A DNA stretch of 64,000 bases from Wickerhamiella versatilis. Lineage: Eukaryota. Positions within the stretch are counted from its first letter, which is position 1. The number at the start of each line of letters is the position of its first letter. The notes beneath the pieces are model-generated. The model was not told the DNA's origin. It saw nothing but the letters and a program-made list of their open reading frames with translations, and did not search any database. The DNA lies in the NCBI GenBank assembly GCA_030867685.1, contig JAQOWU010000007.1, positions 2,542,001 through 2,606,000 on the forward strand, read 5' to 3'. Shown piece by piece: positions 3,672 through 62,119 of this stretch. A program made the position numbers and the translations under genes.

Positions 3672-3719
3672 GCCCACTTCACTACCTGAGACTGGTTGGG
3701 CACTGCAAGATAGCCCACT
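3672..3719 (+). repeat. 41-bp dispersed repeat, full copy with upstream tandem junction
   Basis: gcccacttcactacctgagactggttgggcactgcaagatagcccact. Confidence 0.95.
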
Positions 3720-4097
3720 GTCAGAATGGAAAGACTAATAAAAACGAAAAGCAATTCATAATTATTGTAAACGTTTGAAGATAGTGGGCTGGGCCAATTC
3801 CCTGAAATCGCTAGAAAGTTTAATGTTGTATGTCGTTATCATAATATTACCTCGTAAATCATATGTATGAAAAACACCTGGGAAAACACATTCGTATAAA
3901 ATTCTCTATTGACTAGTTTTGCGATTTGAACGGTGTTTGTTAGAACTGGTTTATCTTACTTTTTCCAACCAGTATTAGGTGGTAAGTATGTCACTGATAA
4001 CTGATAAATCATATACAGCTCTACTCTAGCATTAGCTAATTTTCTCTCCATGTTCATATAGTTGACAGGTGCCAGAGTAGTTTGCAGTGGTGAAGCT

Positions 4098-4430
4098 CTA
4101 TGTCGCTGTTGCGTCATCGGCATTGGAAGATAGGAATGCTAGAGATTTTAAAAGTAGCAGCATGATACAAACTGCATAAAAATATTTCAGAGAATATACC
4201 AGCGTCGCCACTACATTACTACCCACAAGGATAACAAGGAGCCATACGGGGATCTGTAATGTTAGTTTCAGAGCCAATACTTTTCTGATATGGTCAAGCA
4301 TATTGTTAATGTGACAGCTCTAAAGGAGCAGTATGAGTATTATATGTGCTGAGTAAACAGGTATAGCGAATACAGCAAAGATCAGCGCCCACCAAATATA
4401 ATAGTGTTCACTTAGGCTTTGAATTCTCAT
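4098..4430 (-). pseudogene. Small hydrophobic membrane-protein ORF with one in-frame TAG
   Basis: ATG at 4430 (MRIQSLSEHYYIWWALIFAVFAIP...) is in frame with the 4098-4301 ORF across a single stop; several hydrophobic segments. Confidence 0.4.
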
Positions 4431-4598
4431 TGGCTTGCAAATTAGGCCACATCAGTCTACCTAGTGCAGGTAAATTGTGAGCCATACACGGCTCCTTTTT
4501 TTTCCGCGTTGTAGGGAAAGTGAACCCAAAGATTGATCAATCAAAGCTGGCTTCTCTTCTTAGTCATTGTGTGATCACCGTGACAATGCAGGGCACTG

Positions 4599-4630
4599 CA
4601 CTACCTGTGACTGGTTGGACAACGCAAGAT
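4599..4630 (+). repeat. 41-bp dispersed repeat copy
   Basis: cactacctgtgactggttggacaacgcaagat. Confidence 0.9.
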
Positions 4631-4893
4631 GACCTCTGCTTCGGTTGACTTGTCAATAGAAACCCACAATTAGACCTAGTAAAATTATATAGTGAACCAA
4701 ATATGCCTTGTTTTTTGCGGTATAGAAGAGGTAAACGCAAGAAACTGATCAAAGTGGGGGGTATATGCTTATTTATCACGTAATCAGCATGTCAGCTATT
4801 GCAATCACATGCATATATTTTGAATTAAAATTGACAATCTTTAAAAGGACGCTGAATTTGCTGTTGTGCGTCTATTACTATATTCAATTCGGT

Positions 4894-5244
4894 ATGAATC
4901 TCTCTTGTCTTGCTTCTCTTATCTTCTGTGTTTGTTCAATAGCCTCTGCTGTGCCCACCAGCAAAGATGCGAATGACAAAGTTTCGCATTTTGTTGATGG
5001 TGTAGAAATGAAGGCATTGCTAGCACTTTATGACAGTGAATATATTGGTAAGCCTGTCGATGGGCTGCAGTCAATTTCTTACAGCTATATTCCAGCAAAT
5101 GCTACGCCCGAAGACATCTCAACCATAGTGGGGAATAAAGGTGTCAGAGTAGTGGAGCAGTATGGCAACGAATTAGAGAAAAGAAAAATATGTTGCACAG
5201 TGAGTATATGCAGTGTTGAGGTTATCAAAGTTTGCATTGGTTAA
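4894..5244 (+). CDS. Small secreted prepro-protein with Kex2-type site and Cys-rich 19-aa C-terminal peptide
   Basis: MNLSCLASLIFCVCSIASAVP signal-like N-terminus; ends ...ELEKR/KICCTVSICSVEVIKVCIG. The ATG at 4894 is preferred over 4765. Confidence 0.7.
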   Translation: MNLSCLASLIFCVCSIASAVPTSKDANDKVSHFVDGVEMKALLALYDSEYIGKPVDGLQSISYSYIPANATPEDISTIVGNKGVRVVEQYGNELEKRKICCTVSICSVEVIKVCIG

Positions 5245-5308
5245 GCAAGACTGATGATGTAGCTTTTTTCCTTCGGGTTTTTTTTGTATAGCTTAGACTT
5301 CAGTTCCA

Positions 5309-5333
5309 GTTGGACAATGCAAGATAGCCCACT
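5309..5333 (+). repeat. 41-bp dispersed repeat, right part
   Basis: gttggacaatgcaagatagcccact, perfect match. Confidence 0.9.
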
Positions 5334-5522
5334 CCATGACGAGAATCTTGGCCAAATTCGAGCTGAAATTTGATTAGTGGTTATAACAATGACATTTTGC
5401 TGGTTACCAAGCTTACCAACCCTGCAGGTCGAGCATTTCATTATATAAGCAGTATATCATTTATAATCATATATACGAATATACAGAATTGTGTGGGCTA
5501 CAAATCACGCTGATTGCATATA

Positions 5523-5897
5523 AGGGGTAGTTTGATTTTGAATAAATTTGAAATTGTTACTGGCGCAAACGAAGGTATTGGTTATGCCATGACCAAGCGC
5601 TTCGTCGAAGAAGGTGCTACCGCAGTTTTCATAACTGGCCCGAGATCAGACAAATAGGGGAAAGCTGCATCTGATATAGGTGAAGGAATTGTTCCAATTG
5701 CCGCATATTCGTCTGATGCCGCACGTCTTGATAAAGTATTCCGAGCTATCCAAGAATAACAAGGGAAGTTAGATGTCGTTTTTGTGAATGCAGGAGTTAC
5801 AAATATGGTTCCGCTTGGTACTGTACCTGAAGATTCTATGGATGCACTGTATTCTATAAACGTGACGGGTGTAGTCGCACATATAGAGAACTACTAA
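5523..5897 (+). pseudogene. Bacterial-type short-chain dehydrogenase relic (N-terminal half)
   Basis: Manual translation gives IVTGANEGIGYAMTKRFVEEGA...GKLDVVFVNAG; start ATG>AGG, two in-frame stops, truncated. Not in the ORF track. Confidence 0.85.
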
Positions 5898-6040
5898 TTA
5901 TAAGTCCATACTTATTTTCGTTAGCTCAAATGACTTCTATAGGCAGCTAGAGAACTAGAAGGAATTATTTAGTTGTAAAATAATAATAATTGATTTATAT
6001 TTTGAAAAAATTAGCTATTTGACTTTGAGTCGATTATAAT

Positions 6041-8509
6041 TCAAAAAAACAAAATTGGAACTACAAAGGCAATCAGAAACTGTAATGTAGGACCTACATG
6101 AGTTCCAGCATTGCTCAGTTCTGGAAGGTTTGCAAAAGATTCAGTTGGAGATCCAGTAAATGCTGATCCGCCTGATGTTGGTCCACCTTTCATTTCAGAG
6201 CTAAGCTCTTGGCGAGCCATCGATGGCTGCGCCATTTTCGTTGGGAGGGATGGCGTAGGTATTTCTGTATGTATAATAGATTCAGTTGGAGATTCAGTAA
6301 ATGCTGATCCACCTTTTAATCCAGAGCTATGCTCTTTGCCAGTCATAGATGGCTGCGCCGTTTCCGTTGAGAGTGATGGCGTGGGTATATCTGTACCTGT
6401 AGGCTTGGTCCCCTCTCGCTCTAAAGTAGTTGTGGCCGAATTTGTGGTCGTACGACTAAGAGTACAAGGGCAGTCAGTTACTGTGATGGTCTCGCCGCCA
6501 GTAGCAGTATATGTAACACCATTGGTGCTAAATTTCGTGGATGATGGGCACACTGTGGTGAATGACGAAACTATTGTCGTGAAAGGAGACATAATTTCAG
6601 TAGAGCTCGAAGGAATGCTCTCGGTGACCGGCCACTTGGCTGTTGGCTCACCAGAGAGCTGAGCAGCAGACGTACTACTTTGTGGCTGGCTAGGAGAGAA
6701 CCCAGCCTGACTGTTGTCCAAGTAGGAAGTCGAACTACTGGAAGCTATCTGGCTAGCAGTACTTTTGGGTGTTGTTTCCTTACTAGAAGTGGTAGAAATA
6801 TGCGACCCCAGTGGAGTGGACGAGGCTTCAACTAGACTGCTGGACCCCGTTTCCACACTCGATTCGGAAATATTTCTCCAAGACCTAATTGAAGCCATAC
6901 CAGAAGATTTTAAAATTGGTTGAGTTGAGAGCCCTGTTGGATTGATTTCTGGCACAGTGCTAATTAGAGATGAAGAAGGCAAATTAGTTGAATGAGAACT
7001 CAAGATGGTGCTACCGCTGGGTAATTTGGAGGACCGGCTAGCCATTACACTGACCTTCGATGTAGAAGTTTGCGATGATTTGGTAGTTACATGTGATGAC
7101 TTCGTGCTAGACGAAGCTAATGAAGGCAAAGTTACACTCATCTTACTCGTTATCGATGAACTACCCGTGTTTTTTTGAGAACGCGTGGACACATTGCTCC
7201 TATAACTTGAGCTTGACTTGGTTGATGTAGGTGGTGGGATACTTTTTGAAGAAACAACAGAACTAGAAAGAGACGAAGTCGGGTGCGAAATTTGTGAACT
7301 TGTAGAGGAATTCGTGTAATTACATTGATTAGGGTATCTGCGATCATCAAATGGTTGAGGAAACATACCATATTCGATCATAAGACCTAGATCGATAGAT
7401 ATGCGGTCCTCTGTCTTGTACGTCCAAAACACCCATCCTTGTCCGCTGTACTCGAATGCGTCAAGCTGGGCTTCAATGAACCTACGCGTATCATCCCGAT
7501 ACTCCTGTGACCAGTAGTCGGAGTTGATATCAAGAACACCTTCACAACCCGAGAGACCCTCTGAATACTGTGCAAGAATCCTTTCACACTCAGACCTCGT
7601 CCCTGAGAATTCTCCTACAAAGTGATGTCTAGGGTCATGAGAAAACCAAATTGGAGCATACTTGCAGACCTCTGGAACATTTTCAGAAGGTGGGTTAGCA
7701 CCTGTAAGGTTGGTGGTTGAAATATCATACCAATGGTAATCGACAGCAATTCTTTTGTTATCGAGAAACCAATTGTTCGGATCAGGAGCACCATCCCCAA
7801 AATCGTTCATTACAGGACTTATATTTTCGGGAATCACATCCATGGCTCGTTCATAGTATGAATGCAAGCTATCAAAGAATTTATCTGTGAAATTTGTTTC
7901 CCTGAAAATAATTCCGAAAGGAGCATCCAGTGGAGATAGGGGCTCATTAAGAAGCTCTATACCTGTTAAAACCCCTTGCCACTTTGTTGTGGCATTTCCA
8001 ACGATTCTGCGGACAACTTCGACAGTATCGTCAATATAAGCAGGAGTCTCAGCCCAAATTCCACTAGAGTCACCAAGATTCTCAAAATTTTCCCACCCAG
8101 GAGCTACGTGAATATCAAGCACTACCTGTATACCATATTCACGGGCCCACTCCATAGCTAGATCAATATACGGCAGCTGACCATCAATATACGGGTCATC
8201 ATCGCGTAAAAGGAAGGCGTAATAACCAACTGGCAGGCGAATAAAATTAATGCCCCACGAGGCCATTCTCTCAAAGTCAGACTTCTGAATGAAGTTCTTC
8301 CAATGCGGCTCAAGGACCTCCCGAGAACGTTCTTTCCCAAGACTCCTGGTTAAGGTGTATTCTGAAAGGGCTGAAGTACCATTGAATAGCGAAGGTGTTA
8401 AGAAAAACTCCACAGTGAGCCACGACCCGAGGGATACCCCTCTTATAGGCGTGCTATAGTCGATTAAGGCACTTGATACAGAAAATAAAGCAAATAGTAT
8501 TTTCCACAT
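6041..8509 (-). CDS. GH5 exo-beta-1,3-glucanase-like protein with Ser/Thr stalk and GPI signal
   Basis: Signal peptide, IRGVSLGSWL, IRLPVGY, IELLNEP, VGEFS, GWVFWTYKTE; Ser/Thr-rich tail with a TTVCP...TDCPC motif; hydrophobic C-terminus. Confidence 0.9.
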   Translation of the reverse strand: MWKILFALFSVSSALIDYSTPIRGVSLGSWLTVEFFLTPSLFNGTSALSEYTLTRSLGKERSREVLEPHWKNFIQKSDFERMASWGINFIRLPVGYYAFLLRDDDPYIDGQLPYIDLAMEWAREYGIQVVLDIHVAPGWENFENLGDSSGIWAETPAYIDDTVEVVRRIVGNATTKWQGVLTGIELLNEPLSPLDAPFGIIFRETNFTDKFFDSLHSYYERAMDVIPENISPVMNDFGDGAPDPNNWFLDNKRIAVDYHWYDISTTNLTGANPPSENVPEVCKYAPIWFSHDPRHHFVGEFSGTRSECERILAQYSEGLSGCEGVLDINSDYWSQEYRDDTRRFIEAQLDAFEYSGQGWVFWTYKTEDRISIDLGLMIEYGMFPQPFDDRRYPNQCNYTNSSTSSQISHPTSSLSSSVVSSKSIPPPTSTKSSSSYRSNVSTRSQKNTGSSSITSKMSVTLPSLASSSTKSSHVTTKSSQTSTSKVSVMASRSSKLPSGSTILSSHSTNLPSSSLISTVPEINPTGLSTQPILKSSGMASIRSWRNISESSVETGSSSLVEASSTPLGSHISTTSSKETTPKSTASQIASSSSTSYLDNSQAGFSPSQPQSSTSAAQLSGEPTAKWPVTESIPSSSTEIMSPFTTIVSSFTTVCPSSTKFSTNGVTYTATGGETITVTDCPCTLSRTTTNSATTTLEREGTKPTGTDIPTPSLSTETAQPSMTGKEHSSGLKGGSAFTESPTESIIHTEIPTPSLPTKMAQPSMARQELSSEMKGGPTSGGSAFTGSPTESFANLPELSNAGTHVGPTLQFLIAFVVPILFF
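6138..6394. repeat. Intragenic tandem duplication (2 copies of ~120-135 bp) in the glucanase stalk
   Basis: TDIPTPSL..AQPSM..KGGSAFTESPTES occurs twice in the protein. Confidence 0.8.
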
Positions 8510-10024: not shown

Positions 10025-10441
10025 TTATTCACCTATACACGCGAGAGGGATATCTGTGATCGATTCACAGATTCCAGCGGCCAGAGCATCTAAAAGAAGA
10101 GAAGCGGGTATTGAGAGGGGATTTATCGCATCAAGCACAATTGGGATAAGCTTTGGGCCAAGCAACACGCTGACACCCAAATTCACCACTGAAGTAGTCA
10201 CAAACGCTACAGGGAGCCCTGCCGATAATAGTAAAGTTACTGTTACTACCGCTGGTGCAGCCAGACTCGCTCCAATTTCCAATTGCATAACAGAGCTTAC
10301 TGCTGCTGCCCCTGAGGCACCTATACCTGCAGTCAGTGCTGCTCCTGTCAATGCGGTGATCCCCGTGTCTGTTGCTGCTTTCGTCACTATCGCAATACCA
10401 CCTACTAGTGCAGTGGTACCGACCACTCTAGCAGCTACCAT
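10025..10441 (-). CDS. Ala/Gly/Val-rich hydrophobic orphan ORF, possibly the 3' part of a disrupted gene
   Basis: 138-aa ATG ORF starting 2 bp from a repeat fragment; no recognised family. Confidence 0.4.
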   Translation of the reverse strand: MVAARVVGTTALVGGIAIVTKAATDTGITALTGAALTAGIGASGAAAVSSVMQLEIGASLAAPAVVTVTLLLSAGLPVAFVTTSVVNLGVSVLLGPKLIPIVLDAINPLSIPASLLLDALAAGICESITDIPLACIGE

Positions 10442-10442
10442 A

Positions 10443-10517
10443 GCAAGATAGCCACTCGTATATTGGATCGGTGATATTTGCCTCTTGTAATAGTATAATT
10501 AGCAGCCATCTGGTGTA
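10443..10517 (+). repeat. ~75-bp segment duplicated at 15061-15136, beginning with a repeat fragment
   Basis: gcaagatagc(c)cactcg...attggatcggtgat...tagtataattagcagccatctggtgta at both sites. Confidence 0.9.
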
Positions 10518-13224: not shown

Positions 13225-13246
13225 GGCTATCTTGCGTTGTCCAATC
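13225..13246 (-). repeat. 41-bp dispersed repeat, partial
   Basis: Reverse complement reads gattggacaacgcaagatagcc. Confidence 0.8.
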
Positions 13247-13291
13247 AAAGCCGCCCATCATCAAAGTCCCTTACGATACCGAATATAGACG

Positions 13292-15004: not shown

Positions 15005-15052
15005 CGAATGGTATATAATATATCGAATGGCGTGTATTATAGTTTTATGTGA

Positions 15053-15075
15053 GCTATCTTGCAAGATAGCCCACT
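15053..15075. repeat. Head-to-head fusion of two repeat right arms (18-bp palindrome)
   Basis: gctatcttgcaagatagc followed by ccact. Confidence 0.85.
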
Positions 15076-16858: not shown

Positions 16859-16886
16859 AAGTGGGCTATCTTGCATTGTCCAACCA
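16859..16886 (-). repeat. 41-bp dispersed repeat, 28-nt perfect part
   Basis: aagtgggctatcttgcattgtccaacca. Confidence 0.9.
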
Positions 16887-16909
16887 TTCGCAAGTGGCCA
16901 ATATCAACT

Positions 16910-17326: not shown

Positions 17327-17343
17327 GGTTGGACAATCCAACC
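17327..17343. repeat. Repeat fragment with fold-back
   Basis: ggttgga-caa-tccaacc. Confidence 0.6.
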
Positions 17344-17345
17344 AA

Positions 17346-17559
17346 CCACTCCATGATGAGCATCCTGGCCAGATTCGAGCTCACATATGATCAGTGCTTA
17401 TACCGATGTCATTTTGTTGGTTACCAAGCTGACCAAGCCTTGCAGGTCGGTCATATAAGCGGAGTATCATATAATACACAGATTTGTGTGGGTCGCAAAT
17501 CACGCTAATAGCAGATAATGGGTGGGTTGCCTTTGAATAAAGTTGCAATTGTTACTGGT
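17346..17559 (+). pseudogene. Diverged duplicate of 5329-5563: SDR upstream region plus first 14 codons
   Basis: Colinear similarity to 5329-5563; ATG 17518 MGGLPLNKVAIVTG then runs straight into the repeat. Confidence 0.85.
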
Positions 17560-17568
17560 TGGACAATG
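17554..17568 (+). repeat. 41-bp repeat fragment at the SDR truncation point
   Basis: actggttggacaatg. Confidence 0.8.
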
Positions 17569-18739: not shown

Positions 18740-19795
18740 CTAGAGTTTTTTGAGAAGGTACTGAACTACAGACTCCCTCCGGATTGGTTGAACTATTTTC
18801 GATTCTCTGACTGATTCTGCAGGCTTTGCAGCAAACATCGCATTCACAACAGCTTCCTCTACGGCCTGGACGGCTGCCTCGTAGAATGGATCGAAGTTTT
18901 CATCATTCAGTGATACGATCTTGTCAAACGGTCCTCTGAGCTGCGGCAACGGCATTTTATTGGCAGTAGAAAAGGCCATAAAGATATCACCTGATCCATT
19001 TCCGCCGACAGTTCCGCCACGGCCAATTCCAATAGAGCCTCTTTTGGCCATCCGTCTTAACTGGTGAGGCATCATAGGTGCATCCGTGGCAATAATGACG
19101 ATTATAGAACCCTTATCACCAGCCGGTGTGCTTACGGGTCCAGACACATCCACAGGTATTTCTTGGCCAAGAATACGAAGCCATGGGCGGGAGCCATGGT
19201 TCGCTTGGACCAATACACCAATGGTGTATGCTTCGCCCTTAAAATCAACTACTCTCGAAGACGTACCAGTCCCCCCTTTGAATTGATAGCAGACCATTCC
19301 AGCGCCACCACCGACGTTTCCCTCGTCCACAGGCCCTGTTTTAGAATTGGATATGGCTTTAAGTGCAGTTTCTTCAGTGACATGTAAGCCTAAAATATCG
19401 TTGCAGTATCCATCCCACGTTTCTCCAACCACGGGCATTAACCAAATATAGTTTTCCTCGAGCAATTTACGATGTTTCTCTATAAGCCAGTGTTCTATTG
19501 CGGAATGAACGCGGCCCACACTATGTGTGTTAGTGATCCCTATGGGACCTACAAAGTAACCACCATCCTCAATCCAGTGCGTACCAGTCAGTTCGCCATT
19601 CCCATTAAATGCGTGGAATCCTGCAAAGCATGGACTAAGAGCATCACTTTGGCCACGCGGGAAAACTATAGTCACCCCTGTTAGGACGCCAGCTCTTGTG
19701 ATGGTTTCATAGCCTACCTCGACACCGGGAACATCGGTTATTGCATTCCAGGTCCCCGTGTTTCCAGGAAAGGGCAAAAAGTCTCTCGCGCGCAT
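18740..19795 (-). CDS. dmpA: DmpA-like L-aminopeptidase/D-esterase (peptidase S58), bacterial type
   Basis: NAITDVPGVEVG, NGNGELTG, ITNTHSVG, EGNVGGG, FKGGTGTSSR, G-S cleavage site in DKGSII, SGDIF. Confidence 0.85.
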   Translation of the reverse strand: MRARDFLPFPGNTGTWNAITDVPGVEVGYETITRAGVLTGVTIVFPRGQSDALSPCFAGFHAFNGNGELTGTHWIEDGGYFVGPIGITNTHSVGRVHSAIEHWLIEKHRKLLEENYIWLMPVVGETWDGYCNDILGLHVTEETALKAISNSKTGPVDEGNVGGGAGMVCYQFKGGTGTSSRVVDFKGEAYTIGVLVQANHGSRPWLRILGQEIPVDVSGPVSTPAGDKGSIIVIIATDAPMMPHQLRRMAKRGSIGIGRGGTVGGNGSGDIFMAFSTANKMPLPQLRGPFDKIVSLNDENFDPFYEAAVQAVEEAVVNAMFAAKPAESVRESKIVQPIRRESVVQYLLKKL

Positions 19796-20091: not shown

Positions 20092-20106
20092 CTATCTTGC
20101 ATTGTC
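20092..20106 (-). repeat. 41-bp repeat fragment
   Basis: ctatcttgcattgtc. Confidence 0.7.
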
Positions 20107-21803: not shown

Positions 21804-22131
21804 TCAAGTTCCTAATCTAAGTTACTTCAACTTTGAACAATGAGGAGTTTTTGACATGCCAAAAAGTCCTAGCTGTCCTAATTTTAGGAAAGTACTACTT
21901 CGCTGACTTAAACTATTCGAATAAGCTGTACCAGCCCACACCGGTTTTCACTTTCATCATCGAAAATGACGTGTCTCTAACAGCGTATTGAAAGATAATA
22001 CTGCAAATGGTATCCGAAGACGCAAACGGTGGTCCAGAAGGTTTGGCATCTTCAAACAGAATGACAGCTCAGAATCATAGTTCTGCAGATCCAACATCAG
22101 ATACATCCGATGGAATAGATTAGTTTAAATA

Positions 22132-22165
22132 CAAGATAGCCAAATTAACTACCTGAGACTGGTTG
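22132..22165 (+). repeat. Repeat right arm followed by left arm
   Basis: caagatagcc-aaatta-actacctgagactggttg. Confidence 0.85.
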
Positions 22166-23186: not shown

Positions 23187-23221
23187 ACAATGCAAGATAG
23201 CCCACTTCCTGAGATTGGTTG
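23187..23221 (+). repeat. Circularly permuted repeat copy
   Basis: acaatgcaagatagcccacttcctgagattggttg. Confidence 0.9.
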
Positions 23222-25921: not shown

Positions 25922-25939
25922 AATGCAAAATAGCCCACT
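25922..25939 (+). repeat. 41-bp repeat fragment
   Basis: aatgcaaaatagcccact. Confidence 0.7.
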
Positions 25940-26122
25940 CGAAACAGAGAGGTTATGCTATAAGCGATGCTAATTTAGAGAATCTTTAGGATATGACATA
26001 TCTTTCAACGCTAATATTGATTACCTTATAACCGTTCAAATATTATCTAATGGTATTAATGTACATTAACATTATCTAATATTACCAATATTCCAAAAGA
26101 TATTACAAGCATAGATAGTCCT

Positions 26123-26148
26123 CCTGAGACTGGTTGGACAAAACAAGA
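26123..26148 (+). repeat. 41-bp repeat, partial
   Basis: cctgagactggttggacaaaacaaga. Confidence 0.85.
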
Positions 26149-28004: not shown

Positions 28005-28036
28005 CGCGAAAACCCCAACCCTCAATTTCCCGGGAC

Positions 28037-28430
28037 GGTTGGATCATGCAATGGCGCCGATTTCGGCAATATTAAGCTCATCCCTGGAGTAAAGACGTAG
28101 TACCTGACCAACCGTACCAATCAATATCGACATTGATAGCACTTACTGGAAAGAAATATCAATTAGGCCCTGGAGCTAAACCATTTCCATCTTTCCCTTC
28201 GAGTGGTTGGTGTTGGATAGATCATACAATAGCTCCGATTTCGGCAATATTAAGCTAAGTCATCATCCCTGCAGTAAAGAAGTCGTACCTAGCGAGCCGT
28301 ACCAATCATTATTGTCATTAATAAAATTTACTATAAAGAAATATAATTAGGCCCTGGAGCTCAACCATTTCCATCACTTGCTTCGAGGGGTTGGATAGAT
28401 TATACAGTAGCTCCGATTTCGGCAATATCC
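28037..28430 (+). repeat. 178-bp tandem repeat (about 2.2 copies) upstream of the MFS gene
   Basis: ccgatttcggcaatat at 28057, 28235 and 28413, with conserved intervening blocks such as aattaggccctggagct. Confidence 0.9.
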
Positions 28431-28448: not shown

Positions 28449-28488
28449 CACTACCTGAGACTGGTTGGACCATGCAAGATAGCCCGCT
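28449..28488 (+). repeat. 41-bp repeat, full copy, inside a ~105-bp direct repeat (28412-28520)
   Basis: cactacctgagactggttggaccatgcaagatagcccgct. Confidence 0.95.
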
Positions 28489-29450: not shown

Positions 29451-29972
29451 CAGGTACTCCAGAAAAATACAATTGGGCTATGTTGTATTGTCTACCAATT
29501 AGCTAACAATGCATACACTTTCTTACGTGATCAATTTCTTGGCAGTTCTTACGTAAAATAGTTTTTATCCTCTTCAGTGACAATTTGCAGCCATCTCGGT
29601 TACATGATCGAACAAAGCTTTGTTTCCAGTATATCTTTAGGTAGATTTCTTGCCTTTAGCGAGACATCTTACATTACGTGGGCTCTCCGACGTACGATTT
29701 CCAGTGGTGGGGTAATTCTTTATAAGCAACATAATTATTAAAGGTGATTGCATATATATGCCTTAATATTTTTCTTGTCACTTAAAAAACTCTTACTTTA
29801 TATACTGGAATGAAAATTCTACCTTTAGCATTTCGGGTGACTAGAAAAGACCATGGGCTTGATCCAACGGACTCTAGGGTAGCCTTACTAACAGTTCTAC
29901 CTTCCCCTTAACCATACGGATTAGGTGCTTGTCTTGGCAAGATGCCATTTGAGACATAAGCATTTTTTGAAT

Positions 29973-32103: not shown

Positions 32104-32143
32104 CACTACTGGAGACTGGTTGGACCATGCAAGATAGCCCACT
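32104..32143 (+). repeat. 41-bp repeat, full copy, inside a ~100-bp direct repeat (32074-32175)
   Basis: cactactggagactggttggaccatgcaagatagcccact. Confidence 0.95.
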
Positions 32144-33245: not shown

Positions 33246-33280
33246 ACTACCTGATAGTGGTTGGACAATGCAAGATAGCC
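33246..33280 (+). repeat. 41-bp repeat, near-full copy
   Basis: actacctgatagtggttggacaatgcaagatagcc. Confidence 0.92.
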
Positions 33281-33442
33281 GTTTTTACATTTCAGCATAA
33301 GTGACCACTCCCTACTCTCTCCTCTTTACAAATCTATGGTGAGGAATGTGGAATTTGTTGTCACTGTATCTAGGACTATGCTTTCCCATTCATCCAATTA
33401 TGAATAGAAGTCCTATGTAACATACACATAAACGACATCAGC

Positions 33443-35276: not shown

Positions 35277-35297
35277 ACAATGCAAGATACCACTTCA
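35277..35297 (+). repeat. 41-bp repeat fragment overlapping the first ATG of the orphan ORF
   Basis: acaATGcaagataccacttca. Confidence 0.7.
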
Positions 35298-38583: not shown

Positions 38584-38609
38584 ACTACCTGAGACTGGTT
38601 GGAAAATGC
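38584..38609 (+). repeat. 41-bp repeat, left part
   Basis: actacctgagactggttggaaaatgc. Confidence 0.9.
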
Positions 38610-38621
38610 TAGTTTCCTGTC

Positions 38622-39566: not shown

Positions 39567-39617
39567 CTACCTGAGACCAGTCCGAGATTGGTTGGGCAAT
39601 GCAAGATAACCCACTTC
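39567..39617 (+). repeat. 41-bp repeat with internal stutter
   Basis: ctacctgagaccagt-ccgagattggttgggcaatgcaagataacccacttc. Confidence 0.9.
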
Positions 39618-41426: not shown

Positions 41427-41449
41427 GTCAGTGTAAGTATATTTGTCTC

Positions 41450-41493
41450 TTCACTACATGGGATCGGTTGGACAATGCAAGATAGCCCACTAC
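41450..41493 (+). repeat. 41-bp repeat, full copy
   Basis: ttcactacatgggatcggttggacaatgcaagatagcccactac. Confidence 0.92.
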
Positions 41494-42546: not shown

Positions 42547-42795
42547 TGTGATAGAGCCAATTGGCAAGTGTTATTTGTCATCCGTCAAGCTAGCCCACTT
42601 AAGATTAATGTTCTGTTTGCGGATGATTTTTACGAATTATTCCGCATAACATTATTTTGGTGTTCCCTGCAAATAGAGAACAGATATTTGCTGTTCCCTA
42701 TCACGAACATCCTTCGCATAATCTCCTCAGCACAATTGTTCGTCTGCTTACAGATATGACGTATGACGCAATGCCACGCTTGCATTGTTGACAGC

Positions 42796-42832
42796 ACCTG
42801 AGACTGGTTGGACAATGCAAGATAGCCCACTT
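42796..42832 (+). repeat. 41-bp repeat, 37-nt perfect copy
   Basis: acctgagactggttggacaatgcaagatagcccactt; further fragments at 42586-42600 and 43040-43064. Confidence 0.95.
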
Positions 42833-43262
42833 AGTTTATATAGGCGTAAAGTAAGCTACGAGATAGCGTTATATTATCCCTTAACATGCAGTTTGCAATT
42901 CCAAAGTGACCCTATATGAGTTTACTGGTTGATGTCATGATTCGAAATCCATAAATACCGGTGTTTATTCCTTATTGACATTGTGCATTGGCAAAGACGA
43001 AAAGTGCTAAAACTTTTTGTCTCATAAGGCTTAGGCCTTGATTGGTTGGACAAGGCAAGATAGCTTAAACCCGTGAATTAATCTATCCCATAAAGAAGTA
43101 TAGTCATATCAAAAGTGGTGAGAGACAAATCTAAATCGTCCTCGTCCATTGACCAGTTCAATATACTGAGGTAGCTTCATAGCATCAGACAAAGTACATT
43201 CACTCACGTCTCATCACTATGAATTCTGTTTAAAATTCTTAGTGAGTCATCTAAATGGGTTG

Positions 43263-45020: not shown

Positions 45021-45047
45021 GGGATCGGTTGGCCAATGCAGGATGGC
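45021..45047 (+). repeat. Degenerate 41-bp repeat
   Basis: gggatcggttggccaatgcaggatggc. Confidence 0.65.
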
Positions 45048-45691: not shown

Positions 45692-46179
45692 TTGTTAAGT
45701 TCGAGAGGAATCAATGGGCATCAGAAGGATACTGTAGAGATGTATCGTAAGGTAATTGGTTCTCTAAGTGATCGGACTGACGCGTACCAAATATCAGGGA
45801 GAAGCCAAGGGTGAATTAATAAAGAAGTATGTGGTTACTTTTTTACCTCTGTAGAAAATAGGTTAGACAAATTTACAAGCAAAAAAATCCGTATTGCTGA
45901 TTTGCTTGAATACAACTGGGATCTGTCGTTAGTCAGGTGAAATGTTTCGTCCCCAAAACCACACATATCTTGATGCAGCTCAGCTTAGTGAGCACATCGG
46001 GTTGAGCTAGCAACTGCATCGCTATGAGAGAGTTATAACCTCGCTTTTCTCAACCTATCACATTATGGAGTGCTATTGCTACTATAAATTTAGCAATTAA
46101 AATAGCCATGGATGGGGATAATGACGCCTCGGTTCACCATGAGGACCCTATGTAAAAAAGTTTTTATATAGAAAAAAGC

Positions 46180-46200
46180 TGGACTATCTTGCATTGTCCA
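46180..46200 (-). repeat. 41-bp repeat, partial
   Basis: tggactatcttgcattgtcca. Confidence 0.8.
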
Positions 46201-46738
46201 GCCCGCTATCCTTTCTCAATGGCCACGAGCATCACCCGTCACACACATATACCGTTTGTAATCGCCATCTAATTGGGTATCTCATCCGAGACTTATCTTA
46301 TCTTCTGTTTACAAATCGAAACCTTGCTGAAATCACTGCTCCCACGTATTAATCACGGGTATATAGGAGGCGAAAAGCGAGGACGATGAAACCTTCTCTT
46401 GGGTTCATATATAAAGCGCTTTCATTTAGAAAGTGTTGAAAGAGCTCTAGTGTTTACGGAGATGGTCTTAATACCCTTGACCTGTCTTTCATCGCCTAGT
46501 CAAAGTAAATGTTACAAGGTAGCGGACCTTGAAAAATATAAATTGTGATTAAAAAGTTGCGGTAGATTAAACCTTATCGTCAGAATACTGGAGTACCTGA
46601 TGCACCAGGCTGCTTGATTTGAGGCAGTATAGTTCCACATCGCCTTAGATAGTGGACCTGTTAAAAATGATGGAGAGATTTTAAGAGAATGGCCTATTAA
46701 GGGGAACACCACAAATTACGAAATAGTGGACAAATCTC

Positions 46739-48319: not shown

Positions 48320-48744
48320 AGCCGGGAAAGCCACGCGCGCGTCTCTCTGCTGATCCTTAATAATTACCAGGGTCTATATAATAAGATAGTTCCCTATTCT
48401 AGAGCAACTAAAATATCGCAGTATTGATGAGTATCTGATGATATATGTAACTGTCGAGGCAATACAACACCTCCTGACCTGTGATTCCACGATGATTATT
48501 ATCAGGTAAGGGTTACGAGCCGGGGGGAGAGGTTGGAATACGCCATTGACAAGGCCTCACATGCCATTAATGTCTTATGTATTAACCGATAGAAGCCATT
48601 ATGGCTTTCTAAAATAAATAATGTGTATAGAGGTGTTTGTTCGTATGTTTCTTTTGTTGGAGTGTTGATACCGTGTTCGAATCACCCTAGCCCAGTTTAT
48701 ATCATGGAAGCTGATTAGCACAGTATGTTACCTGTTCCAATCCC

Positions 48745-50270
48745 ATGCTTGACGAGAAACCGGTAATTATTGCATGTGCATGTCCATTCTAAGGAGATGT
48801 CTCGCCCATCCTGGAGCTTAGTCGCGTTCTCATTTGTCGGGGATACGAAGTAACGGTAGTAACAGGGACGACATTCAAAAATAAGGTAGAAGCAATTGGT
48901 GCTAACTTTGTGCCTCTCAAAGGCAGGGCGGACGTTTCAGAGTATGATTTCAACAGCAGATTTGCCGGTCGTTTAGAAGTTCCTCCTGGATTGCCTCGTC
49001 TTAGTTTTGATTTTCGTGAAATATTCATTGGGGCATTGGTTGAGCAGTATGATGCGTTACAGATAGCGATGAGAATTGCACATCGGGAAAAAACAGTGGT
49101 AGTGTCTCAGATGTTTTTTCACAGGCGTTCATCCTCTCAAGCTTGGCGCTCCAGGCATTAAGCCTGATGGACTCATCACTATTGGTATATGTCCAATTCT
49201 GGGACATAGTCTTGAGGCTCAAAGTAGCATGAGAGTGAATGATAACACTGCACATAAGTTGGGAGAATCCCAGGTGAATGGCATTAAAGGAGCATCAGAC
49301 CAATATTTTGCACCTGCCCACAGCAAGCATGTTGAGCTTTCGAAACAAACCGGCTGCAAGAAGCACCCACGATATTTAATGGAACAGAGTTGCTATGGTG
49401 GAGACGTTTGCCTCCAGCTGTGCTCTCCATCCTTCGAATACCCACTAACCAGCCTGCAGACCCCTACTGTTAAGTTTGCAGGTCCATTACCTTAACCCGC
49501 GACCCCTATATCTTCCAGTGTTCCAGAATGGTGGATCAGATGCTTTCTGCTCGCAAAGTTGTCATGGTTTCACAGGGAACAATTGCCACCGACTATACCC
49601 ATCTGGCTATTCCCACCTTGGAGGCTCTGAAGTCTGAATCAGACATATTTGTTGTCGCTCTCCTTGGCCGTCGTGGAGCCACGTTATCTGAAAACTATCA
49701 AGTACCGTCAAATGCCCTGGTCCTGGATTTTTTCCCATATCAACTTTTGTTTTCTCTCATGCCGATGCATTCGTTAGCAACGCTGGATATGGGGGAGTTC
49801 AGCAGAGCATCTGTCATGGTGTGCCAATGGTGCTGGCAGGATCCACAGAGGACAAACCATTCGTTGCTGAACGGGCTGAATGGGCTGGTGTAGGTATCAG
49901 TCTCAGGACAGGAGAGCCCTCTTCAGAGCAGATAAAACATGCAATCGACCAGATCTTGAGCCAACAGAAATATCGACAGCGTATTGATGAAATCAAGAAG
50001 GAAATAGTGGATTACAATTGTCATGATATTCTGGAAGATACAATTAAGGAAATGGTTTATTCAAGTTATGTAAATGCTGCACGGGCGGAACAGGGGGGTG
50101 AGGGTGGTTTCGAGACGTTTATGCCATTGACAGAGCGCACATTAGGTGAGCTCGGCAAGATATTGACCCATTATAAGTGCCAAATTTGTAGTGCTGAAGT
50201 TCAACTGGAAGAAGAAGAGCACAAATGTCACAGCATGCTTCAAGAATATATAGGAGATACAACCACCTAA
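48745..50270 (+). pseudogene. GT1 UDP-glucosyltransferase pseudogene resembling Starmerella sophorolipid UgtA1/UgtB1
   Basis: MLDEKPVIIACACPF*GDV.PIL...RGYEVTVVTG..F..KV...GA.FVPLKGRAD; LQLCSPSFE; WW..MLSARKVVMVSQGT; EDKPFVA.RAEWAGVG. Several stops and frameshifts. Confidence 0.85.
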
Positions 50271-50429
50271 ACCCGATTCCACATGCCTAACCGTTGGATC
50301 TTGACAAGCAATGGATGCTTAGACCAGATTATTGATTTTCCTGCAACTAGTGTAACCGCCTAAAACTCTTTTTGGACACAGCAACCCATCAAATATAGGT
50401 TCGGTCGGATAGTCAACGGGCCGATGTGT

Positions 50430-50492
50430 CTGGTTGGACAATGCAAGATAGCCCACATCACTACCTGAGACTGATCGGGTGATGCAAGATAG
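50430..50492 (+). repeat. Tandem ~1.5-mer of the 41-bp repeat
   Basis: ctggttggacaatgcaagatagcccacat-cactacctgagactgatcgggtgatgcaagatag. Confidence 0.95.
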
Positions 50493-51924: not shown

Positions 51925-51956
51925 ACCCGAGACTGGTTGGACAATGCAAGAATAGC
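51925..51956 (+). repeat. 41-bp repeat copy
   Basis: acccgagactggttggacaatgcaagaatagc. Confidence 0.9.
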
Positions 51957-52162
51957 TCAATTAGTAGCACAGAATGCAGCGTGAAAGGCGACTGGGAAAT
52001 ACTATTTACCATGCACTGATGGACTGCTATCGTGGGTTGGAGCTTCTCTCTCTGCTATATGAATCTCATTAGACTGTAGTTCATGGAATCCATCAGAGGT
52101 ATCCCCTTGAGGGTTAAGCGCTTCTTCGAGCAGATATTGGCATATTTCAAGCCATAAATTGT

Positions 52163-52196
52163 GCTACCTTGCATTGTCCAACCAGTCTCAGGTAGT
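52163..52196 (-). repeat. 41-bp repeat, near-full copy
   Basis: gctaccttgcattgtccaaccagtctcaggtagt. Confidence 0.95.
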
Positions 52197-55030: not shown

Positions 55031-55245
55031 AAGCCTACTATAATACTATAAGAATATTTCTTAGACTAAACTATTGAGCCTTGTAAAGATATCCTAGAAG
55101 AGCTTGGCAATTATATCTTTAATAAACGTCTGTTTGTTACAGTCCATGATATGTGTATGATGGTTTGATAATAAAGGGTTATTATGGGTAGTGCTTAGGA
55201 AAGGCCCAATATATCGATATCTAGTGTTATAACGAGTGGCAAGTC

Positions 55246-55274
55246 CTGGTTGGACAATGCAAGATAGCCCACTT
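55246..55274 (+). repeat. 41-bp repeat, 29-nt perfect part
   Basis: ctggttggacaatgcaagatagcccactt. Confidence 0.92.
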
Positions 55275-55920
55275 TGCTTGGTGCTTCGCTATATGATACC
55301 ACTCACTTCAGTGTTACTTTATTTCTCATTTTGATATCTTATAGGAAATTGATAGAACAAATCAAGTATACGGCTATTCCACTAGGAATACAACATATTC
55401 AATAGCATACGACAGCTTTTAGATAAATAGTAACAGAGGTCAACAATCAGAGATCTAAAACACCACAAGGCGATCAAGATGGGAGTGGCATTCAGAACAG
55501 TCGTGAAAAACAGATCCCAGGGAAAAGGCTCAACAATTTCGATGTTGAAGCCTCGCCGTTGCATCATATAGACTAAGTGGTCTATCCAATCGTTCGAACA
55601 ACAGGAGTTCAGAACATGTTGCATTGCCCAACTGGACCAACTACAAGATAGCCCGTTATCCCTATGTCTTTCCCACTCTGATGTCATTGACTCAGCTAAA
55701 TGTAATTGCTTTTTGCCATTAGCATAAGGCCAATAGAAGACAAGACTTCTCTCAGGTACCCTAGTATGTCCCATTCTCTGAAAATTATCGGTAGCATTTT
55801 CAATATCCGCTATTACGAAATAGAGCCCATCTCCAGCTGAATGCTGTTGAATCCAATTTAACGCGACAAAAACGAAAACGAAAACTAGATTTAATAACTA
55901 CTTATTTCAAAAAAGGTCAT

Positions 55921-58900: not shown

Positions 58901-59148
58901 ATTGAATTTGGTGCGTATAAACAAACAACATTTCCTTGCGAAATACCATAATCATTGCGGAAAAGAGCAGCAATACGGAATACGAGGTCTTTGTACTCGC
59001 TGAACGTTATACTCTCTGACGTGATACCATCAACGTAAAGTACTCGGTCCAGTCTTTCTGAGGTTTGAAAGGGGGACTCGAAGAGTCTATTGATAGCATT
59101 TCCATCGGGAAATTCCGCTAATTCACCAAATGGGCATTTATAGATCAT
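55921..59148 (-). CDS. Carboxylic acid reductase-like A-T-R enzyme (fungal 4CL-like A domain plus actinobacterial CAR-type T-R)
   Basis: SSGTSGLPKGV, QGYGLTE, GWFKTGD, PKSASGKILRR; GGDSLSAL carrier motif; TGATGFLG, VNHVLPY, GYGHSKW, RAHYDGLPV. ATG at 59148. Confidence 0.92.
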   Translation of the reverse strand: MIYKCPFGELAEFPDGNAINRLFESPFQTSERLDRVLYVDGITSESITFSEYKDLVFRIAALFRNDYGISQGNVVCLYAPNSIYTAGIHFGTIALAAILSPASSMYNATELAHQLRMTSPRILITSDEGSQTAREAIKEGTVSEIQIVTFSELLPKIRALLKAPSAPMALPVEVDSAHYPAYYTFSSGTSGLPKGVITTHRNILTNILQLYFDHDTPSIKSEHCVGAVLPMSHIFGLNTFIWAAVYRVQTIVVFPKFDLVTFLEKCSEYDVDVITLVPPMALLFGKHPLLDNYPKLKQNLRYLRCGAAPLSVSTQALLKKRFPNCVILQGYGLTETSPCTHSGSQLETEHDSATVGWLLPGTEARLIDPETGKDSRRGELWVRGPQVMRGYLNDEKATKEAFSEGGWFKTGDVAVVDESGQFQIVDRIKELIKSKGHQVAPAELENVLISHSNVLDAAVVGIPDATQTTEHPRAFLVLQPDTDVNEILRWFKERVAQHKNLSGGVVVVDKVPKSASGKILRRILRDTSIPPEEIKGAVPDGDRRKLIHDLTHDIEQKSVLTTVIRVSIGILGSIENLSGKSNFTEIGGDSLSALTFSNMLQEIYDISVPVALIVSPTSDFQSLADYIESQQNGGTGKPTYATIHGRNVEKVFSTDLALDKFVDSETLLRASSLPNVKGEPRTILLTGATGFLGRHLAFELLQQLERIGGKLICLIRAKNASEGLDRLYRSFDKGDSSLLAHFRDLATNTLEVVAGDKSEEQLGLENDTWQRLSCDVDMIVDSAAMVNHVLPYDQLFEPNVVGTAELIRFAITSKLKQFVHVSSVAVGNGVSRDNFTEDIDVIDMCPSRKIDNSYASGYGHSKWAGEVLLRQAHDQLRLPVSVFRCGMILANTTYSGQLNEQDMFTRLVFSLIATGKAPHSFYELDTEGMKQRAHYDGLPVDFVSRAICSLALSQEGFATYHVMNPHDDGIGLDEFVDWLIAYGYDIERVAEYSDWLQQFENNLNDLPLRQQSASLLPLLHSYRKPLKPTCGSIASTRRFWEALHQKKFTSDFQSPYIDKPLIGKYANGLHLLRLI

Positions 59149-59214
59149 AAGGAGGAGTTGGTCGTTCAATCACAGAAAGACTGGTAACGGTTGTGAGGGG
59201 TGCTTATAAATCCT

Positions 59215-59240
59215 GTTGGGCAATGCATGATAGCCCACTA
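59215..59240 (+). repeat. 41-bp repeat, partial
   Basis: gttgggcaatgcatgatagcccacta. Confidence 0.85.
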
Positions 59241-59680
59241 TATAACAGGATTTGTCTCGACTTATCTTTGCATTCATAGATCATTTCAGATTAAATATGC
59301 ACACTTGCACTGGTGTATAAGCCATTGCCGTAATACAACGGTTTCGAAAGCAATGTTAAGCCTTCTTCACCTAGAAACATATACAGGTATGTTGACATCG
59401 ATTCACGAATAAGTAATTTTAATTGTTGGATGAAAAAAAGCAAAACATTCGTCCATTATGGATTATATATAAGTCTTTTAGGTGGATTTGGTGTTCCTTC
59501 ATATAAGGCTAATATGATAATTTAAGATGGTAGTAGGAAACATAGGATGCCATTTGACTACGTAATGACAAATAAAGTGAAGAAGGTTCCAGTGCCTAAT
59601 GGTATTCAATATAATAGTGAAGTCCAACTACATGTTTCCCATACAACAGAGGTTCCTACACTAAGAAGTAACGAAGAATA

Positions 59681-59699
59681 CAAGATAGCCCACTTCACT
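59681..59699 (+). repeat. Repeat fragment spanning the tandem junction
   Basis: caagatagcccacttcact; another fragment at 61623-61638. Confidence 0.8.
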
Positions 59700-62119
59700 T
59701 GGTTAATTGTAATCAAGACATATGACGCATACCGCGAGGCGGTGCTATAGTCACCTCAGGCTATTAAAATTGACATCAATATAACGATACTTTAAGTATG
59801 GATTGATTTACGCCACAGTTGTGAGTTACATGTGCATATACTGGCTTTTCCTACGGAAGGAGGTCGTGATATAGATCAAGGAATCTAAATTTAACACGAA
59901 GGGTGGAAGAATTCATTCAACGCTTGATATCTACTCAAATTGAGCGAGGAAGATGGCATCAATGCTGTCGTATCAAAGGGAACACTAGGGCCAGTGCACC
60001 AACATTATTGATACGTAGACACTCGCCTCAGTAGTTGGGCCGTCTAAATTTTTAAGGTATGACTCAGTCCTAACGTGTGACCAAGCCATCCGTGTTACTC
60101 ATCCGAGCACAACCTCACATAAATGTATAGATCCAACATCGGCAAAAGATAATTGAAACCAGAGCGGCCTTAATGTGATTAAATTTGACAGGAATGCAGC
60201 ATATAGATCCAGAAACCCCATTAAACAAAGCACGCATATCTTATTATGATTTACCCCCTTTCCTCATTACTTATTCATATATAAAAGGAACTTAATGAAG
60301 CGATATCGCTCACTTTCTTGGTTACACTGAAGGTATATCACGATAGCTATCTCACTCCTCAGCATCAGATTAGATCCGAACAAAAGTTTAGATATTCCCC
60401 TCATACTTTCTATACTGTACATTTCTGCGACGGTCTGCGACAGCCAGAGTTCAACCGCATAAATAATCATAACCGTCCATTTTCGTATGATATACAGACA
60501 ATAATAACAGTGATCTTAAAACTTCCTGCAACATCAGAGCTAGTTTGCAGCTCTAGATCGGGCATTAGTCATGGATATTTGTATGACCTAGGGTTTAGAA
60601 ACGCCCACCAAAAAAACCCGCATTAGGGCACTAAGACAAGCCTGGAGAATAAAACTGCACCTGACCATCTTAAAAGAGGCTCTAAAGACCACGATTGCGG
60701 GACGCTTATCCTGATTTCTCTTAGATTTTGACTTGCTACAATGTGTCGAGCAGAGAAGTTTATGCAAGATACCATTTGTAAATGCCTCAAATGCCTCATT
60801 GTCTTGTCCATCTCACCCATCCCATCATTAATGAGCTAGGTTAATAGAGGACATGATCGCCGGATTAAGCTCAATGTAACGTTAGTGCTTAGTGCTTTTC
60901 AATGTCCAAAAGCATAGTTTTTTATGGTACAGGTCAAGCTTACGCTGCCCTTTGATACACCTTAGGACATCTCGGGGAAACGAAGTGAAACGTCTAAAAA
61001 AGAAATGCAAAATTATCCAAGGTTTTCTAGGCATCTAGAAGCCACAAATCTCAGCAGTGCGTCCGCATCAAGGCCACAATCTCAAATCTACTGGGAAACT
61101 CCAATATGCACACCAAGAAACGACTAAAAGACTACTTTACGGTGGTTTTGTGAAAATTCAACATTACTTACAGCATAACTTGTCAGTTTTTGCCCATGTT
61201 CGTGTGGATGTGCCAACAGTAATATAACCCTACTCCATATGCAGGGATTTTCTAACTCCTTTGTCAGTAGGTGCACACCGATGAAATAGATATTGTTGTC
61301 GACAAGATTTTGACTTAGGGCGTGATGATAATACGGTGACAATACCTTTCCTAGTCAGTGAGTATCCTGTATAAAGGATAAGCAGCTTGATAACCGGTAC
61401 TCTACGTGTCATGGGCCCATCATATGGTGGCGTCCAAGTTGTGGATATTACATCAAACAAAAAGATCTATGCAATTAATCGCATGGTATTCAGGTAGAAC
61501 TAACGGTTTTCATGGTCTACTTCGTAACCATGGCAATACGGATTTCCATTTTATTCCTAAACGACTTGAAAAGACTCTGGTTCAGGCATTTTTTGACACT
61601 TTTCGCAAGGAGCTCAAGAAGAGCAAAATAGCCCACTTTAGGATATTTTCAAGTTAAGGGTTTTGAGTGCGCCATACATAACAGGAAAATAGGACTTGCC
61701 GTAATGAATAAGAAGACTGATGAGACGAGCCCGCCCATCCCACATAAAGATTTATTTTTGATTTGTTCATTTTTGTTATTTCCACCAAACCACTTACAGG
61801 CTGTAAGTAGAGGATGCCATTTGGGCGATGCAGCAAAATGTATATATAGTCAGTTTATACAGGGTACGGGGTTGCGCCCTTGCTGATTTTGCATATGTAG
61901 CCAGATGCTAAAGATCTCCTTCTGAGTATAGTAGATTGTACTTATAGACTATGTGTTAGGCGTAAAAAAATTTTTTGTGCGTTGAGCTGAAACTTCTGGA
62001 CACAGCAACTCTTATGGTAACGGAATATCTTAATTCGTTCAACATACAGCCTGCAGCTTACTTAAATACCAAAAAGAGTTTATAAAAAGCGGGAATTCTC
62101 AGCTAGGTAATATCGGAAT

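Follow-up and report, generated by a model that had tools for sequence, protein, structure and literature searches.

A 41-bp motif recurs at most gene boundaries of a 64-kb stretch of the Wickerhamiella versatilis genome (contig JAQOWU010000007.1 of assembly GCA_030867685.1; here the window, to whose full length all copy positions refer). The best reading is that this motif is a previously undescribed short interspersed intergenic repeat. With moderate confidence, we interpret it as a genome-wide family whose copies are inserted at DNA breaks from a unit-length template and subsequently decay. Budding yeasts have compact, repeat-poor genomes. At one 41-bp unit per gene gap, the family would extrapolate to thousands of copies and ~2% of a genome of ~11 Mb, a size taken from the contig total of runs under one organism label. 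Such a repeat would be an unusual genome feature, missed by standard transposon pipelines, and, if its copies are scars of templated repair, would offer a readable record of chromosome breaks and their direction.

An nhmmer profile made from 11 good copies recovered 32 copies in the window at E ≤ 0.1, the threshold at which copies are counted here, and 53 at E ≤ 10. Searches with the exact consensus returned 3 matches with at most 3 mismatches (0 in 100 shuffles) and 25 matches with at most 16 mismatches (0–1 in each of 5 shuffles), and eight copies reached an identity of at least 35/41. The original prediction, made from the letters of the window, had described about 35 copies at most gene boundaries, ranging from perfect to decayed, and this description is borne out. 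All 36 sites that it listed were matched, 29 of them at E ≤ 0.1, five at E 0.1–1 (10443, 17327, 28037, 35277 and 61623) and two at chance level (35117, E = 1.2; 42586, E = 3.6); the best copy retains 39/41 positions and many others are core-only or decayed remnants. Absent from that list were 3952(-), the second tandem unit at 50460, 29472(-) and 55642(+). Outside the unit, the copies show no likeness to one another, three small duplications excepted.

The copies are confined almost entirely to the space between genes. As had been predicted for recognisable coding domains, 31/32 lie outside open reading frames (ORFs) of at least 100 aa (P = 2e-12), and the exception falls in a 130-aa ORF without a Pfam match. 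Copies are present in every convergent gap (8/8), in 5/9 divergent gaps and in 9/13 tandem gaps, with a 2.3-fold enrichment in convergent gaps, which hold 11/32 copies in 15% of the gap length (p = 0.005). This enrichment would fit the remainder expected after purifying selection against promoter insertions, and equally a role in stopping read-through. A single gap may hold up to three copies, and copies occur on both strands; their distance to start or stop codons ranges from 13 to >500 bp, and both orientations occur beside both gene ends, such that copy orientation is free relative to the neighbouring genes. The predicted preponderance of plus-strand copies, regardless of gene orientation, holds for the window as a whole (24 plus versus 8 minus, p = 0.007) and is independent of the flanking genes, but is confined to 21–64 kb, where the ratio is 19:3, compared with 5:5 in 1–21 kb (p = 0.0009). 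Local copying would produce such a regional bias, as would a dependence of insertion or survival on the direction of the replication fork.

Abundance outside the window was estimated from X11, a food metagenome with ~5x coverage of this organism, whose DNA contigs were compared with 32–52 kb of the window. Single-copy pieces showed depths of 3.3–6.1, whereas bins with good motif copies reached mean depths of 342, 140 and 109, and at position 50457 the consensus letter was carried by 17 contigs with a summed depth of 2,718. Spread over the 26–40 bases that such contigs can cover, the motif depth amounts to ~2,700–6,000, equivalent to roughly 500–1,300 near-consensus copies per ~11 Mb genome. 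Scaled up from the eight copies that match at 35/41 or better in the 64-kb window, the expectation is ~1,400 per 11 Mb. The density of the window thus approximates the estimated genome average, indicating that the motif is genome-wide and not local. RNA reads gave a similar picture in two runs (X21 and X24) bearing the same species label, from a strain that differs from the window by a few percent. Among the poly(A) reads aligned to the window, 1,120/1,228 fitted only the motif, with varied flanks, as did 980/1,100 in the second RNA run; agreement of the loose ends at the motif edges was 0.57–0.73, and both read directions were equally represented. The motif therefore lies within poly(A) transcripts of many loci, as expected of untranslated regions.

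The anatomy of individual copies is that of a unit with limited terminal redundancy. Of 11 intact left ends, five are preceded by at least three of the four bases of 'ACTT' (background 0.058, p = 0.0002); tandem junctions account for two of the five, and at 3681 the match extends to 8 bases. The same ACTTCACT recurs in the loose-end consensus of reads and contigs that stem from other parts of the genome. The unit itself ends in ACTT, and the 'ACTT' ahead of copies, which in some grows into more unit sequence, may be tandem redundancy. The typical copy is slightly longer than one unit. Head-to-tail arrangement is seen in the pair at 50424/50460, with a period of 41, while two one-unit copies (22128–22165 and 23187–23221) are shifted in phase, running from position 21 or 23 to 41 and then from 1 to 19. 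Joints leading one unit back were recovered at 37 bases with 'CACT' between, in 39 and 97 RNA reads of two runs and in the DNA contigs of two runs (depth 11.6 in X11 and 20.7 in X16), and at 41 bases in 32 and 124 RNA reads.

The two ends of the unit are unequally preserved. Exact 10-mer counts rise from 4–8 at unit positions 1–10 to 13–17 at positions 24–31, and 12/23 right-half matches adjoin an unrelated left half, compared with 2/11 left-half matches lacking the right half. At 5309, 23187, 50424 and 55240, perfect right parts stand directly beside unrelated sequence, which slow decay does not explain. Together, these patterns are suggestive of a polarity in which one end is more ragged than the other. 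No copy extends past one unit. In the flanks of six young copies, neither a target-site duplication (by eye) nor a poly(A) or simple-repeat tail was found, and terminal inverted repeats are lacking, the unit ends not being complementary and no arm pairs occurring inside the unit. Read directly, the base composition of the consensus shows no G/C strand skew.

The original prediction had also attributed imperfect dyad symmetry to the core, which finds no support: on folding, the motif does no better than shuffled sequence, and rather worse. Across four copies and the tandem pair, DNA folding gave z-scores of -0.94 to +1.55. The best copy folded worse than 198/200 shuffles (z = +1.55) and, on the other strand, worse than 178/200 (z = +1.11), with z-scores of -0.94 to +0.29 for the three other copies. 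Lacking a hairpin, the motif does not accord with hairpin-based models such as integron attC sites or bacterial repetitive extragenic palindromic (REP) elements.

These observations bear on the reading first proposed for this region, namely that gene cassettes were captured serially in a special, integron-like array occupying the window, with the motif marking their boundaries. A copy at nearly every gene boundary, at least one gene of bacterial origin (an S58 peptidase, described below) and an accessory gene content of transporters, hydrolases and Zn-cluster factors are all in keeping with it. We nevertheless regard it as extremely improbable. A genome-wide copy number about equal to the window density, the outcome that the proposal itself had set as refuting a local repeat-delimited gene-capture array, is what the estimates above yield. 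The integron-like form fares no better, given the missing hairpin, the placement on both strands and the two to three copies in single gaps. Pfam scans of 38 ORFs detected no integrase or other recombinase, in agreement with the earlier remark that none was seen in the window, and no transposase or reverse-transcriptase domain. In addition, a peptidase–permease pair with a motif remnant between its members is probably syntenic in a relative.

Three duplications in the window have borders in, or contain, the motif. A 255-bp non-coding segment occurs twice, at 5309–5563 and 17327–17568, with ~84% identity; in both, the likeness starts at motif position 15–16 of the left copy, and it stops at position 16 of the right copy, which is full only at 17550. 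In the second duplication (10443–10517/15045–15136, 92%), the likeness opens within two core pieces that form a palindrome and closes at the word CTGGT, and the third (28435–28521/32090–32176, 94%) has the motif inside. Breaks or template switches thus do occur within the motif, and the pieces moved are small and non-coding. The copy at 28450 is immediately preceded by a 185-bp tandem repeat (28042–28428; 2.2 copies, 81% matches), each unit of which holds a degenerate piece of the motif and its flanks. At 15045–15075, head-to-head core pieces form a near-perfect 26-bp palindrome, of which 10430–10453 is a diverged version.

Borders of this kind could be taken as signs of a DNA-level mobile system, in which the motif would represent either the joined ends of a very small non-autonomous transposon that targets ACTT, or the site at which a site-specific recombinase acts to move motif-bounded segments as cassettes. 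The 'ACTT' on both sides of full copies could then be a target duplication, both borders of the 255-bp segment lie at motif position ~16 as if cut at one point, and the second duplication likewise starts in the motif. We consider this account very unlikely, since terminal inverted repeats, a hairpin and, in the 38 ORFs scanned, any transposase or recombinase domain are missing, the duplicated segments are non-coding, and the flanking 'ACTT' grows in some copies to 8 nt of the unit, as in a tandem. To our knowledge, 41 bp is also too short for mobile elements of this kind.

Young copies agree over the whole block, preservation grades from perfect to decayed, and borders vary; tandem and phase-shifted forms occur, and position and orientation relative to genes are unconstrained. 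All of this points to repeated insertion followed by neutral decay, and not to a conserved regulatory site. The lack of inverted ends, hairpin, tail and any evident target duplication, combined with the one-unit limit, the redundancy of a few bases and the apparently ragged end, fits a unit-length template copied into breaks. We propose that templated copying of the 41-bp unit, with its short terminal redundancy, would write new copies into DNA breaks; the copying step could be performed by a reverse transcriptase or a telomerase-like enzyme, or could consist in the capture of pieces of a tandem array. Templated copying of this type would yield a fixed end, a ragged end, unit-length products and shifted phases. 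Copies would survive only between genes, being densest in convergent gaps where insertion harms least, and mutation would then decay them, while breaks and ectopic copying within so ubiquitous a motif would give rise to duplications with borders in the motif. The original prediction had already named templated patches at repair junctions as one of two possible origins, and this part of it has held up as a candidate: the unit-length, redundant, tandem and ragged copies and the duplication borders fit.

Several points weigh against this reading of the motif as a genome-wide, template-inserted family. The copy number rests on summed contig depths from a metagenome of ~5x coverage, and a moderately higher density at chromosome ends is compatible with it. 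The short contigs of X11 and X16 match the window wherever they cover it, and so offer no contrast between filled and empty sites. Among identity-matched pieces (at least 81%), right-only and left-only pieces number 6 versus 2, which is not significant, and the better-kept 3' core could equally reflect selection. Variant sharing among neighbouring copies is weak (permutation p = 0.06) and would fit local copying too. Nor did the window data reveal a target-site duplication, a source RNA or an enzyme.

Selection is central to a different explanation, in which the motif, or its 3' core around GCAAGATAGCCCAC, would be a selected site for a predicted abundant DNA-binding protein. This protein could function as a general regulatory factor or insulator, block or terminate transcription, or form a polar replication-fork barrier, and the copies would then point to an unknown genome-wide factor. 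Occupancy of about one copy per gap, with all convergent gaps filled and enriched, agrees with this view, as do the better preservation of the core and the many core-only remnants; the core holds a GATA-type word and an ACAATG word, which we take to be consensus matches, and the 19:3 regional strand bias could reflect fork direction. Against these points stand the conservation in young copies of a 41-bp block far beyond the usual site length, and borders of the kept part that vary (positions 13, 16, 21, 23 and 25), unlike a fixed footprint. Many copies are plainly decaying, their distance and orientation to starts and stops are unfixed, and a binding site would not be expected to occur in head-to-tail or phase-shifted form. 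We view this explanation, the main alternative to insertion, as a tentative possibility.

Telomerase is a known enzyme with unit-length templated copying habits, and the 41-mer might accordingly be this yeast's own telomere repeat, its intergenic copies being interstitial telomeric units that telomerase would have synthesised at internal breaks, each in a single round on the template. The unit length, the redundancy of 4–8 nt and the combination of a fixed and a ragged end fit a single template round, and the shifted phases, of the form position k to 41 followed by 1 to 19, and the head-to-tail units fit as well. Very long yeast telomere motifs exist, an excerpt of PMC7857110 giving a putative 43-nt telomere motif in a Pichia species, which bears on the present case only if the clade is the same. 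The one cleanly readable tandem-junction contig is, however, low in depth (11.6 in X11, where single-copy sequence has ~5, and 20.7 in X16), an argument against long terminal arrays of perfect units that is limited in that short junction contigs may have gone unreported; the absence of G/C strand skew is a further point against. We also know of no precedent for thousands of interstitial telomerase scars, and overall consider a telomeric identity doubtful. A more specific proposal, in which a 45-nt RNA, possibly the telomerase template, would serve as the template for the 41-mer in a yeast combining very long telomere units with weakened break repair and carrying thousands of break scars, appears quite unlikely. 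If true, nearly every gene gap would be a dated break scar at which foreign or rearranged DNA was stitched in, and templated break patching would be a main shaper of this genome.

Table. Copies and remnants of the 41-bp motif in the window; unit positions are abbreviated as pos.
Coordinates	Strand	Description	Support
3681..3719	+	Full-length copy, 38/41, preceded by 8 nt of a prior unit's end	E=1.8e-13
3952..3983	-	Decayed full-length copy	E=0.0059
4600..4630	+	Copy with decayed 3' part	E=2.1e-8
5309..5333	+	Right part only, pos 16-40 perfect; left border of duplicated segment	profile
10443..10453	+	Weak core remnant; left border of duplicated segment 10452-10517	E=0.87
13225..13247	-	Partial copy, pos 14-36, 45 bp ahead of an ATG	E=7.6e-5
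15049..15075	15049-15063 -, 15060-15075 +	Two core pieces, head-to-head palindrome	profile
16859..16897	-	Full-length copy, left part diverged	E=3.7e-13
17327..17340	+	Weak decayed copy; left border of duplicated segment	E=0.39
17550..17568	+	Partial copy, pos 12-29; right border of duplicated segment 17327-17568	profile
20092..20106	-	Core remnant, pos 20-34, in the S58 peptidase/permease gap	E=0.011
22128..22165	+	Phase-shifted copy, pos 23-41 then pos 1-19	profile
23187..23221	+	Phase-shifted copy, pos 21-41 then start of next unit (short deletion), 13 bp from ATG	profile
25922..25939	+	Right part only, pos 23-40	E=0.058
26121..26148	+	Copy with decayed 3' part	E=4.5e-5
28036..28051	+	Weak remnant where the 185-bp tandem repeat starts	E=0.38
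28450..28488	+	Full-length copy then decayed second unit; adjoins 185-bp tandem repeat	profile
29472..29492	-	Weak copy, pos 20-41	E=0.33
32105..32143	+	Full-length copy then decayed second unit; flanks common with 28450 (94% over 87 nt)	profile
33246..33281	+	Near full-length copy, convergent gap	E=5.1e-12
35277..35293	+	Weak core remnant at an ATG	E=0.11
38584..38609	+	Copy in, and filling, a 97-bp convergent gap; 3' part decayed	profile
39581..39616	+	Copy, pos 9-41, divergent gap	E=1.8e-11
41453..41491	+	Full-length copy, 27 bp past a stop codon	E=6.1e-13
42793..42832	+	Best copy, 39/41; main pile-up site of reads and contigs	E=1.4e-14
43040..43064	+	Partial copy, pos 11-35	E=5.6e-6
45022..45044	+	Decayed copy, 3 variants common with 41453	profile
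46180..46202	-	Right part only, pos 15-38	E=5.8e-5
50424..50492	+	Head-to-tail pair, period 41: first unit pos 13-41, second decayed	profile, self-comparison
51925..51961	+	Copy with 1-nt insertion	E=9.4e-9
52158..52196	-	Full-length copy, 37/41, upstream of nitrate reductase	E=2.1e-12
55240..55274	+	Pos 13-41 perfect, left part unrelated	profile
55619..55657	55619-55632 -, 55642-55657 +	Two weak pieces within a 130-aa ORF without Pfam match	profile
59215..59239	+	Right part only, pos 16-40	E=4.1e-6
59678..59695	+	Right part only, pos 23-41, then 'CACT'	profile
61623..61638	+	Weak right-end remnant, pos 26-41	E=0.85

The DNA in which these copies are set is compact, fungal and nearly intron-free, with ORFs of at least 100 aa accounting for 62% of the window. 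According to domain scans, the encoded genes are accessory or metabolic in kind and comprise regulators and transporters (Zn-cluster factors, MFS transporters, a GABA-type permease and a mitochondrial carrier), hydrolases (glycoside hydrolases, an aspartyl protease and a carboxylesterase) and, further, a CoA-transferase, a nitrate reductase, a non-ribosomal peptide synthetase-like reductase, dehydrogenases and a rhodanese protein. Scans of the window returned no Rfam family at gathering score and no tRNA. The nearest relatives of the window proteins searched reach 81–86% identity, and the best named relatives of the permease belong to Wickerhamiella, Blastobotrys, Trichomonascus, Geotrichum and Starmerella (47–51% identity), in keeping with a budding yeast of Dipodascales-like affinity.

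This yeast lineage is noted for foreign-gene uptake. An S58 (DmpA-type) aminopeptidase gene at 18740–19795 (-) was likely acquired horizontally from bacteria, judging by protein matches: three near relatives aside, every named match among the 120 matches listed is bacterial (53–61% identity), while the unnamed matches among those listed are not placeable. It is the sole gene tested for bacterial origin, and the earlier statement that the motif separates units of bacterial type stands to the extent of this one gene. The counterparts of the peptidase (86% identity) and the permease (82%) in a relative are probably on the same 13.8-kb contig, which suggests that the pair, with the motif remnant in its gap, is probably old and syntenic.

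RNA coverage was uneven. In the interval 35335–50008, RNA depth was zero in 14/22 (X24) and 10/22 (X21) bins, whereas the genes at 33–35 kb were covered by RNA, with fixed differences; the genes at 35.3–50 kb are either silent in the strain of the RNA runs or absent from it. Within an amidohydrolase fragment, a 43-bp stretch (45309–45351) was matched by hundreds of RNA reads carrying five fixed differences and uniform foreign flanks, which indicates a highly expressed paralogue elsewhere in the genome. Several ORFs match part of a family only: 45197–45595 (-) covers the C-terminal 119 positions of Amidohydro_2, 30821–31444 (-) corresponds to the C-terminal domain of a zinc dehydrogenase, and 49528–50270 (+) shows weak glycosyltransferase-like pieces in two overlapping frames. 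Pseudogenization, an intron or a frameshift could account for such partial matches. An 822-aa ORF of glycoside hydrolase family 5 contains internal direct repeats at 6134–6395 (83–93% identical, spacing 126–141 bp), a pattern that suggests a repetitive protein segment. Two stretches of 2 kb and 3 kb, at 2750–4764 and 59170–62119, are without any ORF of at least 100 aa, and the former carries three motif copies.

Searches for the motif in other DNA and in the literature returned no counterpart. A 22-base degenerate motif word had 0 matches in metagenome contigs and 1 in prokaryote genomes, and a motif 18-mer had 13 matches in metagenome contigs; these 14 loci were attributed to chance, as their likeness ends at the searched word and is at best 25/41. 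Seven sequence words taken from the motif were not found in any relevant paper by a literature word search judged by titles and abstract starts, and the literature on short yeast repeats and miniature inverted-repeat transposable elements (MITEs) yielded no matching element. In the parts consulted of a 2026 study of related yeasts (PMC13376923), transposable elements make up only 0.2–1% in two Wickerhamiella species, the words 'intergenic' and 'repetitive' are absent from the main text, and the genomes are described as having three chromosomes with long, low-expression end regions rich in foreign genes. The foreign gene in the window and its mostly RNA-free bins at 35–50 kb match the setting of such end regions as that excerpted account gives it.

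Comparison with known systems places the motif closest to none of them in full. Vertebrate short interstitial telomeric sequences are inserted at break-repair sites; like the motif, they are unit-scale templated pieces at internal sites that start at a homology of a few bases and show no evident target duplication, but here the unit is 41 bp, occurs about once per gap and is only putatively telomeric. The REP elements of bacteria and their mosaic clusters (bacterial interspersed mosaic elements, BIMEs) are also ~40 bp long, number in the hundreds and occur strictly between genes, often past 3' ends and sometimes in clusters, but they fold as imperfect palindromes, whereas the yeast motif does not and its host is eukaryotic. 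Integron cassettes with attC resemble it in that a site recurs between genes, with one orientation prevailing (here over 43 kb), and differ in having a folded site and an integrase; in the window neither is present, several copies may occupy one gap, both strands are used and the family is genome-wide. MITEs and the tails of long and short interspersed nuclear elements (LINEs and SINEs) are likewise high-copy, non-coding and tolerated near genes, and the apparently ragged single end recalls truncated retroposon tails; the motif, in contrast, has no inverted ends, poly(A), evident target duplication or longer copies, and shows a sharp 5' limit of one unit. At 41 bp, it is several times shorter than any MITE or LINE/SINE element known to us. 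Sites of the Reb1/Abf1/Rap1 type are 8–15 bp long and kept by selection; they too occupy a large share of gene gaps in either orientation, whereas here a 41-bp block is copied whole and then decays. What sets the motif apart, and makes it of interest, is its density within a yeast and its telomerase-like anatomy.

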